This document shows, piece by piece, positions 1 to 7,924 of a DNA stretch of 7,924 nucleotides. The stretch comes from a virus, in IMG/VR virus record IMGVR_UViG_3300035492_000368, positions 1-7,924 of that record, one strand, 5' to 3'. Both the position numbers and the translations under genes were made by a program. Numbering within the stretch: position 1 is the first letter of the stretch; each line of letters starts with the position of its first letter. The notes under the pieces were generated by a model. That model searched no databases. It saw nothing but the letters and a program-made list of their open reading frames with translations, and was not told the DNA's origin.

Positions 1-127
1 TGGCCGTTTGTCCGTCTCATCGGCAGCCCTGGCAGAAAAAAGGCGTTCTCCTTGGGTCGGTGTGAATCCTACGTCAAAACCCTTTAACGGGGCCAGTGAT
101 CAGAGGCGAGCTGCGCTCGGGGCGGCC
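1..127. repeat. Terminal direct repeat, copy 1 (identical to 7798-7924); circular-contig overlap
   Basis: Base-by-base comparison shows 1-127 equals 7798-7924. The repeat runs to both window edges. Confidence 0.95.
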
Positions 128-352
128 TTCGGCCTGGGAAAGAGCCTGACGCGCTGCGCTTGTCACCAGCCTCAAATGCCCGCCGCGAGCGGCAGACATT
201 TGACGCTGTTCGACTAAGAACTGAGCCAACAACTCAGGGTCTCGGACTCGGTTATCAACAAAAGGCAAATCGCCAATGACCTCTGAAAAGTCCGTATCGC
301 GCGCGACCACAAAGCCGCGAATTTCCCAATGGGTTACACCTTTCACACTCAC
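74..352 (-). CDS. Hypothetical protein, 92 aa (second gene of the accessory pair)
   Basis: The GTG start at 352 overlaps the TGA stop of the upstream 82-aa ORF (GTGA). An alternative GTG at 346 is preceded by GAGG with 5-nt spacing. The N-terminal half looks like ordinary protein. The C-terminal half is Arg/Ala/Ser-rich and could be an over-extension in GC-rich DNA. I recognise no family by eye. Confidence 0.45.
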   Translation of the reverse strand: MSVKGVTHWEIRGFVVARDTDFSEVIGDLPFVDNRVRDPELLAQFLVEQRQMSAARGGHLRLVTSAARQALSQAEGRPERSSPLITGPVKGF

Positions 353-597
353 CTCACGTCCAGGCGATCAGCCTGAAAGCCAATTTGACGAAGAATGTTG
401 AGAGCCGCGTCCAGGCTCTTGAACAGGCGCACTTCACGCTCACGAGTGGCCACGAAGATCAGAGTGGCGTCGTTGCGGAGCTGCGACTTGAAATAGAGCA
501 CCCAGTCATCACTAAGCGGTTGACGTTCCAGCCAGGCGGACGCGATCAAGCCGCGTTCAAAATCTTTCTTGGCCTCAGCAAAAGTAACTTGTTTCAC
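349..597 (-). CDS. Hypothetical protein, 82 aa (first gene of the accessory pair)
   Basis: GTG start at 597 with GGAG (608-605) 7 nt upstream. A sigma70-like promoter lies just upstream. Amino-acid composition is balanced and suggests alternating helix and strand. I recognise no family by eye. Confidence 0.65.
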   Translation of the reverse strand: MKQVTFAEAKKDFERGLIASAWLERQPLSDDWVLYFKSQLRNDATLIFVATREREVRLFKSLDAALNILRQIGFQADRLDVR

Positions 598-622
598 AGC
601 AAATCTCCGTTCTGATGGGCGA

Positions 623-651
623 AGTATCAGACGTTTTTATAGTTTCGTCAA
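623..651 (-). promoter_or_regulatory. Candidate sigma70 promoter for the 82/92-aa genes, and possibly rep by read-through
   Basis: On the minus strand: TTGACG (651-646), a 17-nt spacer, then GATACT (628-623). This sits in the 61-nt gap between the pIV stop (659) and the 82-aa start (597). Confidence 0.5.
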
Positions 652-672
652 ACCGTTTTCAGAGTTTCGTCA
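641..672. repeat. Two exact 10-bp direct repeats (minus-strand TGACGAAACT) spaced 22 bp apart; operator- or iteron-like
   Basis: agtttcgtca occurs at 641-650 and again at 663-672. The first copy overlaps the -35 hexamer. The second lies in the last codons of pIV. Confidence 0.6.
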
Positions 673-1882
673 GCTGAATGACCAGGAGGATTTCGGACTT
701 GCTGGCCTCGCTGGTGTTGCTGCGGAACAGCTTCGGCAGAAAAGACAAGCCGGTGGAGTTGTCACTGCTCTTTTCCTCCGTCAAGCCGCCCAGAAGGATC
801 ACCTCGCGGTCACGCATCTGAACGTTGGTGGTCAATTGGCGCTTGGTGAGCGTCGGGGAGTTGTTGACCCCGTTGGTGGTCGGCACAAAGTTGGAAAGCT
901 GCTGATCGACCACCAGGTCAACGGTGGATTCGCGCACCTGGGGCCGCAGGTTGAAGATCACGCCGGAATCACGGTACTCGACCGACTGGATGGGTTCCCC
1001 GGAGCCTTGCGCATAAGAAACGGCACCCAGCACAGGCACCTCAGCGCCGACGCTGAAAGAAGCCTCAGCGCCGGAGCGGACGCGGAGCGAGGGCTGCGAG
1101 ACGACACGAAAGCGGTTGTCGCTGGACAGCGCACTTAGTACGGCGGTGAAGTCGCTGGTGGACAGCGAAATAGAGTTGTCCAGCGGATTGCCCGCCAAGG
1201 TGACGTTGATCTTGCCCTTAAGCAGGGATGCAGCGAGGGCGAAGGCCGAGCCGTTGGCGTCGCCTGTCTGCACTTCGTAGACGACGCCGCGAACCATGAC
1301 CTCGCCCATGGCGACATCGATCTGCGGCAGGAGCTGCTTGACCTTGGCAATCTCCGACTTGCTGCCGACGAACACCAGGTGATCGCTGTCGCGGTTGATC
1401 GACGCAGCGGCAGAGCCAGGGGTGACAGCGGAGGTGACGGGCATCGCCCCAGGAACGGACACCTGCCGATTGACGGCGAAACGCCCCTCGAACAGTGGTT
1501 GCAAGGTCTCGGAGAGATAGGCCACGTCGCGGTACATGGGCCGGTACAGAAAGTATTCGCCAGGCGGGGGCGGCGGCGTCTTCTTCGGAGAAACGTGGTC
1601 GAGGCCGTCACGGCGCGTCACCGTATAGCCGAATCCATCGAGAAGCCGGACAAATTCGCGGCGCACCTGGTCGGCGTTGCCCTGGACGCGCAGAGAGACA
1701 AGGCGCTGATCCTGGAGCACTTCGGGGGCCAAGATATACGGTCGCTTGAATGCGTCAGCGTAGAAGATCGTCGCGACCTGACCGAGCGGAACGCCGTTGA
1801 GGTCGAACTGGTAGGGAGGCACAGCGGCCAGGGCCGCGAACGAAAGAAAGTAAGTAAGAAAGAAAGAAAGTAACCGGGTCAT
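659..1882 (-). CDS. pIV-like outer-membrane secretin (GspD/PulD-type secretin domain)
   Basis: 407 aa. N-terminal signal peptide (MTRLLSFFLTYFLSFAALA/AV). The C-terminal secretin signature reads VVSQPSLRVRSGAEASFSVGAEVPV ... REVILLGGLTEEKSSDNSTGLSFLPKLF. It is the last gene of the morphogenesis block, and its ATG overlaps the Zot stop (ATGA at 1879-1882). Confidence 0.85.
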   Translation of the reverse strand: MTRLLSFFLTYFLSFAALAAVPPYQFDLNGVPLGQVATIFYADAFKRPYILAPEVLQDQRLVSLRVQGNADQVRREFVRLLDGFGYTVTRRDGLDHVSPKKTPPPPPGEYFLYRPMYRDVAYLSETLQPLFEGRFAVNRQVSVPGAMPVTSAVTPGSAAASINRDSDHLVFVGSKSEIAKVKQLLPQIDVAMGEVMVRGVVYEVQTGDANGSAFALAASLLKGKINVTLAGNPLDNSISLSTSDFTAVLSALSSDNRFRVVSQPSLRVRSGAEASFSVGAEVPVLGAVSYAQGSGEPIQSVEYRDSGVIFNLRPQVRESTVDLVVDQQLSNFVPTTNGVNNSPTLTKRQLTTNVQMRDREVILLGGLTEEKSSDNSTGLSFLPKLFRSNTSEASKSEILLVIQLTKL

Positions 1883-2949
1883 GGCGCGTTTCCAGGTAGG
1901 GGAACAGGGGAGCGCGGAGCGGCGACAGCCCCGCTGAAGGTGCTAACACGCTGGCCGTCAAGGTCGCCGACCATCACCCTACCGGAGTTGGTGAACATCG
2001 ACGGGTGCTCGTAACGAATCACGTTGTCCGGGCCGATCAGCACGACCAGGCGTTCACCATCGACAACGATGTGCCCGGCGATCCGCCAGGAGGTGCTGAA
2101 GCTGGGGGTGGGTGGAGACACAGGCGCAGAAGATCCGACAGGCCGGGCAGACGCCGGAGCTGTCCCGGCAGGCGGTGAAGTGTTGGCCGACTGGTCCAAG
2201 TCGCGGTTGAAGAAGTGCACGACGCCGCCAATGCTGAAACCGCCACCGACCAGGAGGAAAGCGGCGAAGAGCCAGAGCTTGGGGTTTTTGAGGATGTTCT
2301 GCCGGTCATCGACCGCAAGTTCCTTGCCCTTGCCGCCCGTGTAAGAGCTGTAGAGCGGGAAAATCGCAGGATCGTACTTCTTGTTCTGGACAGCGACACG
2401 GGCCTTGCTGGTCTGCTTCCAGCCCTCCCACATCTCGACCCGATAGATTTTGTTAAGGCCAAGCGACTTGATCTTGGTGGTGCGAAAGCTCAGCTCAACC
2501 ACGGTTTTCAAGATGCGATGCAAGTCGCTGATGTCCTGCACCATCAGCACCAGGTCGCAGCTGACCTTCGTCTCGGGGTGGACGTAATGGCGGTGCTCGC
2601 GGAAGAAGATTCGATGCTCGGTGACGATCTTCGAGTCAGTTCCCCAGAAACGCCAGGCTTCGTCGATGCAAATCAGGTCACCAGGCTGGCAAAAGGTGTC
2701 TACCTCCTTGCCATGGGGCAAGAACTCGGGGTTGAACACGTCGTCATTGGAGCAGTGAACCACTTCCCCGAGGCGATCCAGGGCAATGCCCTGTTTCTCG
2801 TGGACATAAGCGCGGATGGCGTCGCTGTCGATGCCATCAACGTTGGTGACCACCCGGCGACCCTTGGCCACCGCCGGAATAATCACCGAGGACACGCACT
2901 CGAAAGACTTGCCGCTGCCCATAAGGCCGGTGTAGGCGTTGATTGGCAT
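1879..2949 (-). CDS. Zot/pI-family phage assembly P-loop ATPase
   Basis: Starts MPINAYTGLMGSGKSFECV. Walker A GLMGSGKS is at 2905-2928 and a Walker B-like LICIDEAW follows. One TM segment (LWLFAAFLLVGGGFSIGGVVHFF) is followed by a Pro/Ser-rich linker and a C-terminal domain. I chose the start at 2949, not 3051, because it forms a TGATG overlap with the pVI-like stop and begins at the conserved Zot N-terminus. Confidence 0.9.
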   Translation of the reverse strand: MPINAYTGLMGSGKSFECVSSVIIPAVAKGRRVVTNVDGIDSDAIRAYVHEKQGIALDRLGEVVHCSNDDVFNPEFLPHGKEVDTFCQPGDLICIDEAWRFWGTDSKIVTEHRIFFREHRHYVHPETKVSCDLVLMVQDISDLHRILKTVVELSFRTTKIKSLGLNKIYRVEMWEGWKQTSKARVAVQNKKYDPAIFPLYSSYTGGKGKELAVDDRQNILKNPKLWLFAAFLLVGGGFSIGGVVHFFNRDLDQSANTSPPAGTAPASARPVGSSAPVSPPTPSFSTSWRIAGHIVVDGERLVVLIGPDNVIRYEHPSMFTNSGRVMVGDLDGQRVSTFSGAVAAPRSPVPLPGNAP

Positions 2950-3236
2950 CAGCCGATCACCGGAATACGGCGGATAAAGAAGCGCGTCACCATGGCAGAC
3001 ACCACCAGGGGCAGGCCGGTGGAGAAGGCGAACAGATCGAGGAAGTACCAAGTTCCCGCGCCAATGCCAGCAAACGCGGAGGTAAGGCCACTGCCGGGAG
3101 GCAGCCAGCCAGCCATTACAGCGACCAACTCAGCCACGATCCAGTACAGGGCGATGAAGACCACGAACTTGACCAGGACGCCCCGGACAAGCCAGCCCAG
3201 CAGGGCGTTACCAGCAGAAAGCAAAATACCGAACAT
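2949..3236 (-). CDS. pVI-like minor virion/membrane protein
   Basis: 95 aa and strongly hydrophobic (about 3 TM segments), with a basic tail FFIRRIPVIG. It sits between the pIII-like and pI genes as in Ff-type phages. GAGGTG precedes the ATG. Confidence 0.65.
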   Translation of the reverse strand: MFGILLSAGNALLGWLVRGVLVKFVVFIALYWIVAELVAVMAGWLPPGSGLTSAFAGIGAGTWYFLDLFAFSTGLPLVVSAMVTRFFIRRIPVIG

Positions 3237-3244
3237 GGGTCACC

Positions 3245-4576
3245 TCACGCGGACAAGACAATGAACAGGGCGACGAGCACCCAGCCGAGCAGGCTGGCGT
3301 TGTACAAAGGGCCGCGCACGTCCTCAGAGAGCGAGCAATGGGCGTCCATCTGGACTTGTTTGCCGATAACGGCCAGATCGAAGACCGGGCGCGGGCACTC
3401 GGCCTGATGGGCTGGCACCTGGAAGTTGCGCAGATCGGGAAACAAGGCCGTGATCGGGGCGAGGATCTGCGCGCCAGTCGGGGTCGCCTCCAGGTTGGGG
3501 GCACCGATGCCGGGATCTAGACCAAGGTCGAGCTGGGGCGAACCTTCAGGCGCAGTCGGAATGCCAGGCTGCGTCTCAGTGCCCGTGCCAGGCTGCGGCA
3601 GGGTGACGGAACCAGTAGACGGGTTGATGGCCGGCGACACGGCATCGCCAACAGTGGGGTACGACGAGGGATTGGAAGCGCGCCACGCTTCCACGTCGCT
3701 GGCGGTCACGGGGTTGGTGTACGAGTACGGCAGGCCCTGATAGCCAGGCTGTGAAGCGGCCTGCTGCCATGCCTGGTTGACGGTATCCGCGATGATCTGC
3801 GGATTGACCGGCGCGACCTTCTGCTCAGGAGTCAGGTCATCGGCGGCAAGCTCAGGCGTCTTAGGAGCAGGTGCTGCACCAGGAAGAGGCGCGGGAGCAT
3901 AGCTGCCGCCGATCTGGGTATTAGAACCAATCAGGTTCGCAGAACGAGGCCAGCGGGCACCATCATCGACAGGGCGACGGAAAGCACCGCCCACGCTGCA
4001 CGAAGAATCTGAACAATGACCAGCATTAAAGTTCCACTCCCATACCAGGCCGGGCGTGCAGGAAAAAGAGCCGCACTCACCATAAGCAATAATCGACCAA
4101 GCAACAGCCAAAATGTCGCCACCTTGGACGGTCTTATTGTCGTAAGTATTACCAGACCAATACGCATAGGGAGGAATGCCACCTGTATTTGCTCCGGGTG
4201 GGGCAGAAGTAGCATCAGGATTCGTCACGGTTCCATCTTCATTGAAGAACCAAGAGACGGCAGCATCGAGGGCCAGCGAAACAGCACCCGCAGCCAGCGC
4301 GCCGAGGCCAATGGTCACCCAAAGCGGGGCACCTGCGGCAGCAACAGCGCCCGTTGCAGCGGTCGTGAGAACGGCGGCAGTCGCAGAGACGGCAGCACCA
4401 AAACGCGGATCGTTGGCGGCAAAACCGCGTTGGATGGCCTTGTGTTCCATCACCCCGCTGATGGCCTGGCCCATTTTGGCGGAGTAGGCCGGGGCCGCGG
4501 AGGCAAACACCGGCAGAAACAGGATGGCGAAGAAGGCGACCTTCTTCAGTACAAGGAGGGCAAGTAGCTTTTTCAT
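3245..4576 (-). CDS. pIII-like adsorption/minor coat protein
   Basis: 443 aa. Signal peptide MKKLLALLVLKKVAFFAILFLPVFASA/AP. A Cys-containing domain, Pro-rich linkers (APAPLPGAAPAPKTPE; PQPGTGTETQPGIPTAPEGSPQ) and a C-terminal membrane anchor LLGWVLVALFIVLSA. Its position after the coat gene also fits. Confidence 0.7.
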   Translation of the reverse strand: MKKLLALLVLKKVAFFAILFLPVFASAAPAYSAKMGQAISGVMEHKAIQRGFAANDPRFGAAVSATAAVLTTAATGAVAAAGAPLWVTIGLGALAAGAVSLALDAAVSWFFNEDGTVTNPDATSAPPGANTGGIPPYAYWSGNTYDNKTVQGGDILAVAWSIIAYGECGSFSCTPGLVWEWNFNAGHCSDSSCSVGGAFRRPVDDGARWPRSANLIGSNTQIGGSYAPAPLPGAAPAPKTPELAADDLTPEQKVAPVNPQIIADTVNQAWQQAASQPGYQGLPYSYTNPVTASDVEAWRASNPSSYPTVGDAVSPAINPSTGSVTLPQPGTGTETQPGIPTAPEGSPQLDLGLDPGIGAPNLEATPTGAQILAPITALFPDLRNFQVPAHQAECPRPVFDLAVIGKQVQMDAHCSLSEDVRGPLYNASLLGWVLVALFIVLSA

Positions 4577-5606: not shown

Positions 5607-5665
5607 GTTTCTGTACCTCGATGCTGGTCGCCCGGTCGTTTGAGAGGCTACCCTTGGGCGCGTTA

Positions 5666-5685
5666 AGGGTGCTGAACGGCACCCT
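5666..5685. promoter_or_regulatory. Inverted repeat AGGGTGC-N6-GCACCCT; candidate operator
   Basis: Perfect 7-bp arms at 5666-5672 and 5679-5685, inside the 115-bp divergent region between the structural operon and the HTH gene. It overlaps the proposed -10 of the leftward promoter. Confidence 0.4.
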
Positions 5686-5709
5686 AACTAGGTCAACTCA
5701 ACGTGTCAA
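5681..5709 (-). promoter_or_regulatory. Candidate sigma70 promoter of the structural operon
   Basis: On the minus strand: a perfect -35 TTGACA (5709-5704), a 17-nt spacer, then TAGGGT (5686-5681). Confidence 0.45.
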
Positions 5710-5721
5710 GGGGGTTAAACA

Positions 5722-6042
5722 GTGGCAAATCAACATTACCTGCGCGAGACGGGCTTCTGGCTCGACCAGGTGAAGGAAAAATACGAGTGCAAAAGTGATG
5801 GCGAGCTATCCCGGCTGCTCGGCGTGACCAAAGCGGCGGTGAGTCTGCAAAGGGCCGGGAAACACGAAATGAGCATCAAGCAGGCGGTGAGAGTGGCCGA
5901 GCTGCTACACGTCAACCCGATGTGCGTAATATGCGGGGTGATGTACCACCAGGACCCAGCCGAGGCCGAGTTCTGGAAATCGGTCTACGAACAGACGGTG
6001 ACGGAAAACGACCGTCGACGGTATTTCCCCGAAACCAACTAG
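5722..6042 (+). CDS. HTH (Cro/CI/XRE-like) transcriptional regulator; putative phage repressor
   Basis: 106 aa. GTG start with GGGGG 7 nt upstream. The helix-turn-helix signature is SDGELSRLLGVTKAAVSLQRAG. It is the only gene in the opposite orientation, as is typical of inovirus immunity regulators. Confidence 0.75.
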   Translation: MANQHYLRETGFWLDQVKEKYECKSDGELSRLLGVTKAAVSLQRAGKHEMSIKQAVRVAELLHVNPMCVICGVMYHQDPAEAEFWKSVYEQTVTENDRRRYFPETN

Positions 6043-7817
6043 TCGTCGGGGTCGGGGCGCTCCATGTAGGACGGCGGATTGACCGGCAAGCCGGCAATGT
6101 AGTCCACCACCGCCTTCAATCCATGCCGGCGAGCGAACAGGAGGACGAGCGACTGCGCACGGTTGCGCACCACCTTGTCGAACTCGTGATCGCTCAGAGC
6201 AAGCAGCAGTTCGGAATCCTCTTCCTTCCGTGCAGCGAGAGCCATGTCACCGGCCTCGCTGTCGTCCACCACCACAGCCTTCTCAAGTGACGCCAAAAAA
6301 GCCTTGAGCGTGCGGCTGAACTGCAACTGATGACGCCCGAGGAACGCCTCGGCAAATTCGGCGAAACGCTGCGCGGCTGCCTTGTCGCCCTGGCTGGCCT
6401 CGAACAGCAACTGAAACGGGGTCGCGCCCTTAGCTCGTGCGGCCTTAACGTGTGCGCCGGCAAGCTCGTGTTCTGGCCCCCAGCGCCGTTCGCGAGCTTC
6501 ACCGTCTCCAGTGAACTGGCCGAATTTTGTCAGGTACTCTTGAGCGGACAAAGCCTTGCGAACATCGAGCCCCAGGTAACGCACAGAGCCGCCGACCTTG
6601 ACGGTCTTCAGGGGCGCGGGCAGGCCAACTTCCTTGCACGCCTGAGACCACGCCTCGAACAGCCGATCGCGCAGCAAAGCAACCTCGTATGACGATAGCT
6701 CGCGGCGGAAGAACCACAGGTGATGCTCGTGGGGATGCCAGCCGTTTTTAGTGCCGTGGGTCACCTCCAGGTTGGCAATCCGCCCGATGTAGCCGAGGAA
6801 CGGCATGGAGTCTACGCGCTGACGCTTGCGCGCCTGCTCGCGAGTGGCTTCCTTGAAGGCGTAGGACTTCTGGAACAGCTGCATGGCGTCTTTGAACTTG
6901 CCCAGCAGGTCGGCGAGCTGGTCACCGATGCCATGCTTAATGGTGAAGGTCAGCATGTAGGCGCTGCCCTCGATCTCAGCCACGCCATTGTAAGCGTCGG
7001 CGATCTCGTCACGGCGGGCGCGGTTGATCTTCGCGGAGCACAGAGGGCACGTCCAAACGCTGCCGCAGACGGCCACCTGGTGCCAGTTGACCGCGCCGCT
7101 TTCGCGATGCTGCCACAGCTCGGCAGACTTCCCCGGCACCTTGCGGCGGTAACAGCCGACCACCCGGAATTTCGGCGACTTGTTCACGGTGCCCTCGATG
7201 CCATACAGCTTGTTACGCACGACCGGCAAACCGAGGTCGGTGGCCAGCACCCGCGACACCTTGACAGGGACGCCGGGGCGTCGGTCGCGGTTCAGGTCGA
7301 GGTCGCAGTAAGCGACCTTGGCGCGCAAATCGGTGTAGGGGGCGGCAAAGGTCTTTTCGCGTTCCTGCCAGTACTGCGGGCGGCTCAGCAGACGCTGCGC
7401 GTGCTGCTGCAACAGCCAGCGCTCCAGGAGCGCTTCGTCGGCGTCCCACTCTTTGACCCAAGACTGGCGTTTTTCGTCGTAGACGAAGCGAAAAGTTTCA
7501 CCGGTTTTAGGGTCGCAAAGCTCCCTAAGTCCTTGATTCTTAAAGGGCAAAAGCTCAAGAGCAGGCGCGTTAGTGTCGGTAAAGTTCGTAGTATTACCGA
7601 GGGCGCTCCGCGCCGGGCCGCGCCCGCCGCTCTCGCGCCCGTCCTCGCGCTCACGCGCTGCGGGCGTGCGCTCGTGCGTCGGTGCGCGGTTGATGCGTGT
7701 CGTTACTTCGTCTAACATCCTGAGAACTCGATCTAGCCGGTTGAGTACTGCGAAAGACCCAAGGCCCCTGCTTGCAACAGGGGCCTTTTCTTTTGCCTGG
7801 CCGTTTGTCCGTCTCAT
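6039..7817 (-). CDS. Rolling-circle replication initiator (HUH endonuclease, pC194/pUB110 Rep_1-like by motifs)
   Basis: The Cys cluster CGSVWTCPLC (7038-7067) is followed by RARRDE. Motif I is YMLTFTIKH (6933-6959). The HUH motif is HPHEHH (6720-6737). A candidate catalytic Tyr lies in AQEYLTKF (Y at 6534-6536). The coordinates give the maximal ORF. The ATG at 7718 (559 aa) is an equally good or better start, because codons 1-33 are rich in rare codons (AGA, AGG, CTA, CGA) and contain a 10-bp-stem hairpin. Confidence 0.85.
   Translation of the reverse strand: MRRTNGQAKEKAPVASRGLGSFAVLNRLDRVLRMLDEVTTRINRAPTHERTPAAREREDGRESGGRGPARSALGNTTNFTDTNAPALELLPFKNQGLRELCDPKTGETFRFVYDEKRQSWVKEWDADEALLERWLLQQHAQRLLSRPQYWQEREKTFAAPYTDLRAKVAYCDLDLNRDRRPGVPVKVSRVLATDLGLPVVRNKLYGIEGTVNKSPKFRVVGCYRRKVPGKSAELWQHRESGAVNWHQVAVCGSVWTCPLCSAKINRARRDEIADAYNGVAEIEGSAYMLTFTIKHGIGDQLADLLGKFKDAMQLFQKSYAFKEATREQARKRQRVDSMPFLGYIGRIANLEVTHGTKNGWHPHEHHLWFFRRELSSYEVALLRDRLFEAWSQACKEVGLPAPLKTVKVGGSVRYLGLDVRKALSAQEYLTKFGQFTGDGEARERRWGPEHELAGAHVKAARAKGATPFQLLFEASQGDKAAAQRFAEFAEAFLGRHQLQFSRTLKAFLASLEKAVVVDDSEAGDMALAARKEEDSELLLALSDHEFDKVVRNRAQSLVLLFARRHGLKAVVDYIAGLPVNPPSYMERPDPDD
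7690..7718 (+). promoter_or_regulatory. Candidate plus-strand promoter, antisense to the rep 5' region
   Basis: TTGATG (7690-7695), a 17-nt spacer, then TAACAT (7713-7718). The -10 overlaps the complement of the alternative rep ATG. Confidence 0.3.
7725..7795 (+). ncRNA. Hypothetical ~70-nt countertranscript RNA, antisense to the rep leader or 5' end
   Basis: It is bounded by the candidate promoter and the plus-strand terminator. It contains two stem-loops: 7726-7731 paired with 7741-7746 (one G-U pair), and 7761-7787. This is sequence-based inference only. Confidence 0.25.
7761..7795 (+). terminator. Strong hairpin plus T-tract; intrinsic-terminator-like on the plus strand
   Basis: AAGGCCCCTG (7761-7770), a 7-nt loop, CAGGGGCCTT (7778-7787), then TTCTTTTG. 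On the minus strand the tail is only GGGTCTTTCG, so it is weaker in that direction. It could instead be a packaging-signal or origin hairpin. Confidence 0.55.
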
Positions 7818-7924
7818 CGGCAGCCCTGGCAGAAAAAAGGCGTTCTCCTTGGGTCGGTGTGAATCCTACGTCAAAACCCTTTAACGGGGCCAGTGATCAG
7901 AGGCGAGCTGCGCTCGGGGCGGCC
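7798..7924. repeat. Terminal direct repeat, copy 2 (identical to 1-127)
   Basis: Same comparison as copy 1. It duplicates the 5' end of the maximal rep ORF and the 3' end of the 92-aa ORF. Confidence 0.95.

Follow-up and report, generated by a model that had tools for sequence, protein, structure and literature searches.

A plasmid ParC-like gene and a lineage-specific neighbour between the secretin gene and rep of a putatively episomal inovirus

Genes and signals at the locus

The window analysed here, the 7,924 nucleotides (nt) of IMG/VR virus record IMGVR_UViG_3300035492_000368, contains two small open reading frames (ORFs), orf82 and orf92, between the secretin gene (pIV) and the replication gene (rep) of an inovirus. 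Positions 1–127 are repeated exactly and in direct orientation at 7798–7924, most likely as an assembly overlap, and the window is a complete inovirus genome, a circle of 7,797 nt. Because of this terminal duplication, the location between pIV and rep holds solely on the 7,797-nt circle, and features at 63–127 are found again at 7860–7924. A preliminary description of the window had proposed that the two ORFs form a self-promoted cassette of acquired cargo, with a toxin–antitoxin (TA) or exclusion pair, Cop-like regulators of rep and host modulation as possible functions. We report that orf82 has the features of a strongly constrained gene, is remotely homologous to the ParC proteins of plasmids and is kept ahead of rep in every related phage found, and that orf92 appears to combine a lineage-specific coding segment with a frame running on into conserved intergenic DNA.

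orf82 (349–597, minus strand) has a GTG start and encodes a predicted cytoplasmic alpha/beta protein of 82 residues, a divergent ParC-like family member. The orf92 ORF (74–352, minus strand), also with a GTG start, encodes 92 residues. Stop and start codons of the two overlap in GTGA on the coding strand (TCAC on the plus strand, 349–352), and a second in-frame GTG for orf92 at 346 is the start chosen by gene callers in relatives, giving products of 90, 88 and 89 residues. A ribosome-binding site, GGAG (605–608, minus strand), lies 7 nt before the orf82 GTG and is kept in all relatives. The sigma70-like promoter of orf82 (TTGACG-17-GATACT, 623–651, minus strand) is the sole match in positions 1–900, where shuffled sequences give an expectation of 0.2; an identical promoter is called in L001 (L numbers designate the sequences compared), and promoter-like sites precede the homologue in L028 and L016. 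The two ORFs, their GTGA overlap, the promoter and the GGAG had been named in the preliminary description and were reproduced, and the promoter is conserved as well as present.

Tandem 19-nt direct repeats (TGACGAAACTnTnAAAACG), 22 bp apart from start to start, overlap the orf82 promoter. The distal copy (TGACGAAACTCTGAAAACG; 654–672, minus strand), a putative operator, overlaps the pIV stop codon, and the proximal copy (TGACGAAACTATAAAAACG; 632–650, minus strand) overlaps the −35 hexamer and spacer. The tandem repeat has two matches in the window, compared with 0.01 expected, and is conserved in relatives. In the outgroups L028 and L016 this place is taken by another repeat, TGGCAAAA(A)CCTnTA, a replacement that suggests an operator co-evolving with its binding protein. 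A separate short motif, GTT(T/A)GACG(A/T)A, is also enriched, with four unique sites (70–79, 383–392, 644–653 and 7707–7716) compared with 0.7 expected; these are located at the −35 of the orf82 promoter, in a conserved intergenic block, in the first codons of rep and, for one, on the plus strand antisense to orf82.

The G+C content (GC) of 241–660 is 51.4%, the lowest of any 420-nt window in this 60.2%-GC genome, which confirms the earlier estimate of about 51%. The pIII-like gene holds a second low-GC stretch (3901–4300, 0.52–0.54), and low GC is thus not specific to the cassette, though the cassette is the minimum. The weaker third-position bias noted earlier holds relative to rep, pI, pIV and pVI, with third-position GC (GC3) of 0.61 in orf82 and 0.52 in the first 50 codons of orf92 compared with 0.72–0.78 in those four genes, but it does not set the pair apart from the coat, pIII and orf78a genes, which are also low (0.62–0.65).

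Conservation of orf82

Diverged relatives for estimating the ratio of non-synonymous to synonymous substitution rates (dN/dS) were fetched by exact-protein look-up. Pairwise dN/dS of orf82 among relatives is 0.05–0.12, and the window and L008 differ in this gene by 14 synonymous and no non-synonymous changes (dS 0.29), leaving the proteins identical. This pattern is that expected of a real gene under strong constraint and, together with the values for orf92 given below, bears out the earlier view that both ORFs are genuine coding sequence.

Every relative found, from at least five lineages, has an orf82 homologue together with promoter and GGAG; identity is 79–100% in L001–L006, L008, L012, L021 and L022, and 39–47% in the three more distant inovirus lineages (L011, 44%; L016, 45%; L028, 39%). 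Carriers include a third-party P. aeruginosa assembly and an isolate-derived contig from IMG/VR. The order of secretin gene, orf82 homologue, ~190–390 nt and rep is constant in relatives, and orf82 occurs without orf92 in L001–L006, L012, L011, L016 and L028. Of the pair, orf82 is carried by all relatives found and orf92 by only three lineages. The GC3 of orf82 homologues in L001, L006 and L012 is 0.75–0.77, like that of core genes. The proposal of acquired cargo accordingly fails for orf82, universal in the group and core-like in GC3 in relatives, and survives for the N-terminal segment of orf92, found in three lineages and with a GC3 of 0.48–0.56 across all alleles. Searches by tblastn of orf82 against 50,697 phage records gave zero matches; with orf82 and the family member P0035 as queries, no phage was matched and the sole plasmid match was Janthinobacterium pA12BJ1.

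Relationship of orf82 to plasmid ParC

Scans of orf82 and orf92 against Pfam, PHROGs, NCBIfam and PADLOC returned nothing beyond a weak match of orf82 to NCBIfam NF041544, the "ParC family partition-associated protein" (16.8 bits, E 0.0042), confined to residues 51–74. As anticipated in the preliminary description, neither protein could be placed in a characterised inovirus core family by the PHROGs and Pfam profile scans. An exhaustive search of 1.84 billion representatives with a HMMER profile recovered 81 proteins of ~80 residues (representatives at 50% identity), and the family is marked by the motifs AK-DF-RG, GW-V-L and R-FK(T/S)LDAA---IGF. NF041544 is matched independently, if weakly, by 20 of 83 family members (best E 3.5e-7); none of the members matches a relevant Pfam family. 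Aligned with hhalign to six annotated plasmid ParC genes (from Rms149, Xanthomonas, P. aeruginosa, Marinobacter and Pandoraea), the family gave a probability of 94.6% (E 7e-8) over 77 columns corresponding to orf82 residues 1–74; with Rms149 ParC alone the probability was 75.6%. These profile comparisons place orf82 as a divergent branch of the ParC superfamily, outside the curated NF041544 family, and the ~80-residue family itself is absent from Pfam and PHROGs.

An AlphaFold (AF2) model of orf82 built from an 83-sequence alignment has a mean predicted confidence (pLDDT) of 94.1 and the predicted element order strand, helix, four strands, helix. It replaced an earlier model from a 5-sequence alignment that was unusable (pLDDT 58). 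Foldseek against BFVD returned a sole, uninformative match to an unnamed viral protein (E 1.2e-4), and sequence searches of the PDB with the orf82 family and with orf92 gave chance-level matches only.

The gene order on the plasmids is parA, parG/parB, parC, ~165–245 nt and the replication initiator. In the window and in all related phages orf82 is located directly upstream of the origin region and initiator, on the same strand; it does not follow parA and parB/parG as part of a partition operon, the gene upstream being the pIV secretin. What phage and plasmid have in common is therefore the position before origin region and initiator, not ParA/ParB. The parC genes of IncP-6/IncG plasmids have been termed an "auxiliary partition protein" without experiments (PMC4785139, PMC11265224). 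Other contexts of the family are more varied. On the 7.8-kb Janthinobacterium plasmid pA12BJ1 (L010), which encodes both a Rep_1-like protein and TrfA (256–3465), the family gene sits in a run of small unannotated ORFs, and another member is located on a 49-kb viral contig (L013) beside a HigBA-like pair.

Coding status and origin of orf92

The two parts of orf92 differ in how they evolve. Codons 1–50 have a dN/dS of 0.10–0.13 in all three pairwise comparisons, and their differences are concentrated at third positions (29/56, 28/57 and 15/21), while codons 51 to the end have a dN/dS of 0.6–1.5 with a low dS of 0.15–0.20. These rates indicate a real coding segment of ~50 codons (197–346, minus strand; start at GTG 346, or at GTG 352 overlapping the orf82 stop), which is lineage-specific, followed by ~40 C-terminal codons (74–196, minus strand) in which the frame runs through conserved intergenic DNA and appears to be constrained as DNA, not as protein. 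In an alignment of the pIV-to-rep region, the final third of orf92 overlaps DNA blocks that are kept even in relatives without orf92, namely GACAAGCGCAGCGCGTCAG (146–164) and CGTTAAAGGGTTTTGACGTAGGATTCA (63–89, equal to 7860–7886, minus strand), the latter containing the orf92 stop codon. Because of this overlap, alleles with only 66% overall identity share the same final 17 residues. A 12-nt palindrome identified by eye inside orf92 (182–193, codons ~52–55; GCCGC-TC-GCGGC on the coding strand) keeps its position while its letters differ, being GCAAC-TT-GTTGC in L008 and CGGAAC-TT-GTTCCG in L001; the palindrome may act in cis as part of the intergenic region.

Three alleles of orf92 are known, those of the window (also L022–L024), of L008/L009 and of L021. 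The N-terminal segment is absent from L001–L006, L012, L016 and L028, and since it is missing from other lineages as well as outgroups, acquisition inside the clade is a more parsimonious account than several losses. Between the window and L008, the first 50 codons have a saturated dS (>2.5) and a dN of 0.32, with a jump at 346–352, which indicates from the sequence pattern that the orf82/orf92 junction is a boundary of modular recombination. The GTG start of orf92 and the GAGG upstream of it are conserved. orf92 showed no relationship to ORFs that follow orf82 homologues elsewhere (L020), to the translated neighbouring ORFs of L010 and L011, to the orf82 family or to ORF13 of phage PMBT54. 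We hold these statements on the identity and evolution of orf82 and orf92 with high confidence.

Intergenic region and hairpin

A non-coding intergenic region persists downstream of the cassette, partly inside the 3' third of orf92; the cassette precedes this region and is not a replacement for it. Between orf92 and rep lies a terminator-like, G+C-rich hairpin (7761–7787), bordered by an A-tract and, on the opposite side, a T-tract, which is conserved in six lineages, two of its pairs having changed on both sides. Calls of intrinsic terminators pick out this hairpin mainly on the strand antisense to rep, including in L001, L016 and L028, and there is a weak match to Rfam ctRNA_p42d (22.3 bits, E 0.34). 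Folded as single-stranded DNA (ssDNA), the whole intergenic region is not more stable than shuffled sequences (z −0.71), and our claim is therefore restricted to the single conserved hairpin. On the plus strand, a weak promoter at 7690–7718 (TTGATG-17-TAACAT, 8/12 matches) has a −10 that complements the rep start codon, and its equivalent in L016 scores 9/12. A counter-transcribed RNA of ~70 nt against the rep leader (7690–7796, plus strand) is possible from this arrangement.

No sigma70-like promoter was called between the orf82 promoter and rep in the clade of the window, in agreement with the earlier remark that rep has no convincing separate promoter. In the outgroups L016 and L028, TTGACT-18-TAGGAT is called as a promoter within the intergenic region, ahead of the hairpin. 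The TAGGAT(TC) in block 63–89 is conserved in these two outgroups as well, where it is called as a −10; in the window TTGACG abuts TAGGAT. The orf82 promoter may contribute to rep transcription, subject to the hairpin. Of the three functions first considered, Cop-like leader regulation comes closest to the evidence, with the genes on the same strand as rep and repeats in the promoter, but a terminator-like hairpin intervenes between the ORFs and rep, and the fold of orf82 matches none known for Cop proteins.

Genome organisation and lifestyle

A CI-like repressor gene (5722–6042, plus strand) is the only phage gene not encoded on the minus strand. Read along the coding strand, the order is rep, the repressor gene (antisense), the ssDNA-binding protein gene, genes for two 78-residue proteins and a 443-residue pIII-like protein, DUF2523 (pVI-like), Zot (pI), secretin (pIV; Pfam E 2.9e-26), orf82, orf92 and the non-coding region leading back to rep. 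The rep gene (6039–7718, minus strand) encodes a Rep_1-like protein of 559 residues that falls under the Pfam cutoff and matches PHROG 11698 at 1.4e-48. Its conserved start is the ATG at 7718, and relatives are called at 559 residues; the longest rep ORF (592 residues, start 7817) crosses the conserved hairpin from a start that is not conserved among relatives. The 7718 start has a poor Shine–Dalgarno sequence, an AGG abutting the ATG. The repressor gene (Phage_CI_repr, PHROG 4441) and rep run convergently, with a 4-nt overlap at the 3' end of rep (6039–6042); the repressor gene is divergent from the ssDNA-binding gene, with TTGACA-17-TAGGGT on the coding strand of the intervening 5607–5721.

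The genome has no integrase and assembles as a circle. The phage and its relatives occur as stand-alone contigs of ~7.6–7.8 kb, one in a P. aeruginosa assembly, and a contig identical to the window is present in a public run (L022). A search of 185,579 representative genomes, made with a narrow alignment, found no relative, and megablast of the genome against phage records gave zero matches. From these observations we infer an integrase-less, episomal, Pseudomonas-type inovirus with a secretin gene.

Proposed function

We posit that the region is the leading edge of a plasmid-like replication/maintenance module rather than an addiction cassette, a reading to which we give about even chances. 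orf82 would be a conserved, plasmid-derived accessory gene of this module in an episomal phage, and its position in the order pIV, orf82, intergenic region and rep would be equivalent to that of parC on plasmids. As such it could regulate or assist the replication, copy number or stability of the phage's episomal replicative form, probably acting at the tandem repeats, by autoregulation, and/or at the origin region, and would thereby set the amount of transcription reaching the hairpin-guarded rep leader. Control of rep or of copy number by orf82 through the promoter repeats is a tentative proposal, drawn from synteny and the anatomy of the locus, and we consider it less probable than the broader assignment to a maintenance module. 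orf92 would be a later addition, formed when ~140 nt of foreign coding DNA with a lower GC entered where the orf82 stop meets the intergenic region. It would be translationally coupled to orf82, with a frame that stays open through intergenic sequence up to the first stop codon; probably it either modulates orf82 or has an accessory role dispensable in other lineages. The analysis shows coding status, conservation, homology, synteny, promoter, repeats and hairpin; DNA binding, autoregulation, an effect on rep and an interaction of orf82 with orf92 are inferred.

Several observations weigh against assigning orf82 to such a module. The phage has no ParA or ParB partner, orf82 does not reach the curated cutoff of NF041544 (95 bits), and the family members of L013 and L025 have no adjacent rep gene. 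The modelled fold is not recognisable as a DNA-binding fold of the ribbon-helix-helix (RHH) or helix-turn-helix (HTH) type, and the best Foldseek match in the PDB, ribosomal protein eL38 (TM 0.60, E 0.22), is not significant and was not used. The hairpin could end orf82 transcripts ahead of rep and so uncouple the two. Neither plasmid ParC nor any protein of the orf82 family has a demonstrated function, and where PMC3235114 cites Kwong et al. 2001, parC of pRA2 is reported as not required for stability and possibly non-coding.

The arrangement of the two genes is at first sight that of a type II TA or addiction pair, in which either gene could be the antitoxin and cells losing the episomal phage would be killed: they are small, overlap in GTGA, are translationally coupled under one promoter, and encode proteins of sizes typical of type II systems, on an episomal phage that would gain from addiction and with the precedent of Pf4 PfiT/PfiA cited in the preliminary description. 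We consider this very improbable. orf82 stands alone in most lineages and in plasmid and other contexts, and since it remains under strong purifying selection when alone it has a function of its own; the pair is not inherited as a unit, the scans against Pfam, NCBIfam, PADLOC and PHROGs revealed no toxin, antitoxin or defence domain, the orf82 model does not show an RHH, HTH, AbrB or Phd antitoxin fold, and the last ~40 codons of orf92 look like unselected read-through. Cargo of the moron type, acting on the host or on competing phages through superinfection exclusion, anti-defence or host physiology, is unlikely for the locus as a whole, and where it applies it would be chiefly to orf92, for which host modulation is possible. 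Such cargo would be expressed independently of phage replication, and would account for a promoter separate from the main operon, the GC minimum of the genome at this locus, the patchy distribution, low GC3 and mosaic exchange of orf92 (window versus L008, dS 0.29 in orf82 and >2.5 in the orf92 N-terminal segment) and the family member beside a HigBA-like pair on the 49-kb viral contig. It fits poorly with an orf82 that is universal in the phage group, compositionally normal in relatives and represented among the rep-adjacent backbone genes of non-phage plasmids, which points to a general episome function, and neither protein has a membrane segment or signal peptide predicted from its sequence.

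A different doubt concerns orf92 itself, which could be a frame open by chance where the intergenic region of a 60%-GC genome begins, so that only orf82 would be a real gene. Long spurious ORFs are frequent in all frames of this genome, the C-terminal 40 codons are conserved as DNA and unconstrained as protein, and homologues are confined to three close phage lineages, most relatives lacking the gene. The low dN/dS and third-position excess of the first 50 codons, a frame that stays open without indels across ~35% protein divergence, and the conserved GTG and upstream GAGG make this improbable, though a little less so than a TA pair. Returning to the replication/maintenance module, a wider and more speculative form of it, which we think will probably not hold in full, is that orf82 and plasmid ParC jointly define a widespread class of small origin-adjacent proteins, on theta plasmids and rolling-circle filamentous phages alike, that control initiator expression or copy number and not partition. 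In the phage it would act alongside a counter-transcribed RNA ending at the hairpin, with orf92 as a young orphan modulator that obtained its C-terminus by read-through.

These results tie a family of ~80-residue proteins (81 representatives) to the named but functionally undefined ParC family of plasmids, and correct the tempting misreading of orf82/orf92 as a TA pair. The retention of ParC-like genes before the initiator in very different replicons yields a testable hypothesis on ParC-like function, and the phage offers a compact 7.8-kb system for testing the link between ParC and inovirus replication control. orf92, for its part, illustrates a gene whose 3' third is in-frame intergenic DNA.

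Comparison with known systems

The closest counterparts are the ParC proteins of plasmids (NF041544; IncP-6/IncG, e.g. Rms149 and pRA2, and those of Xanthomonas, Pandoraea and Marinobacter), which are remotely homologous to orf82 over the whole ~80-residue core, are similar in size, and are likewise encoded on autonomously replicating elements of Pseudomonas-type hosts, immediately ahead of a few hundred non-coding nt and then, on the same strand, an initiator gene. Unlike orf82, plasmid ParC has a conserved C-terminal W-x-P-(R/K)-T tail and is preceded by genes for ParA and ParG/ParB, whereas orf82 follows a phage secretin gene and has its own promoter. The initiator partners also differ, being rolling-circle and Rep_1-like in the phage and theta-type in the ParC plasmids.

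In the Ff phages (M13/f1/fd), a non-coding region with conserved blocks and a hairpin lies after the last morphogenesis unit, between gene IV and gene II (rep). The window phage has such a region with conserved DNA blocks and a hairpin between gene IV and rep, but in contrast to Ff it is preceded by one or two self-promoted coding genes, one of which reads into it. PfiT/PfiA of Pf4, named in the preliminary description, is likewise formed by two overlapping, self-promoted small ORFs in a Pseudomonas inovirus; the cassette differs in having no recognisable toxin or antitoxin domain, in partners that are not co-inherited, and in lying beside rep in an episomal phage, whereas the Pf4 TA genes lie beside the integrase in a prophage.

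The cultured phage closest by Rep is PMBT54 (L029; OR047306), a ~7.3-kb episomal Pseudomonas inovirus with a Rep_1-like rep that also carries two small ORFs between the secretin gene and rep (6850–7318), and the earlier statement that this slot is normally non-coding was thus too strong. ORF13 of PMBT54 is an omega-like RHH protein, by homology a plasmid-type maintenance or copy-control regulator, and no family is assigned to ORF12; the authors of that genome suggest episome maintenance or copy control for the plasmid-type omega repressor (PMC10534721). ORF12 and ORF13 are unrelated in sequence to the cassette (hhalign probabilities of 0.1% and 0.7%), and the folds differ, ribbon-helix-helix in ORF13 and alpha/beta in orf82. 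Taken with PMBT54, the window phage adds to the evidence that maintenance genes of plasmid type occupy the slot between secretin gene and rep in integrase-less Pseudomonas inoviruses, and by gene content this slot appears to be a recurrent site for small plasmid-type genes in the episomal members of the group.

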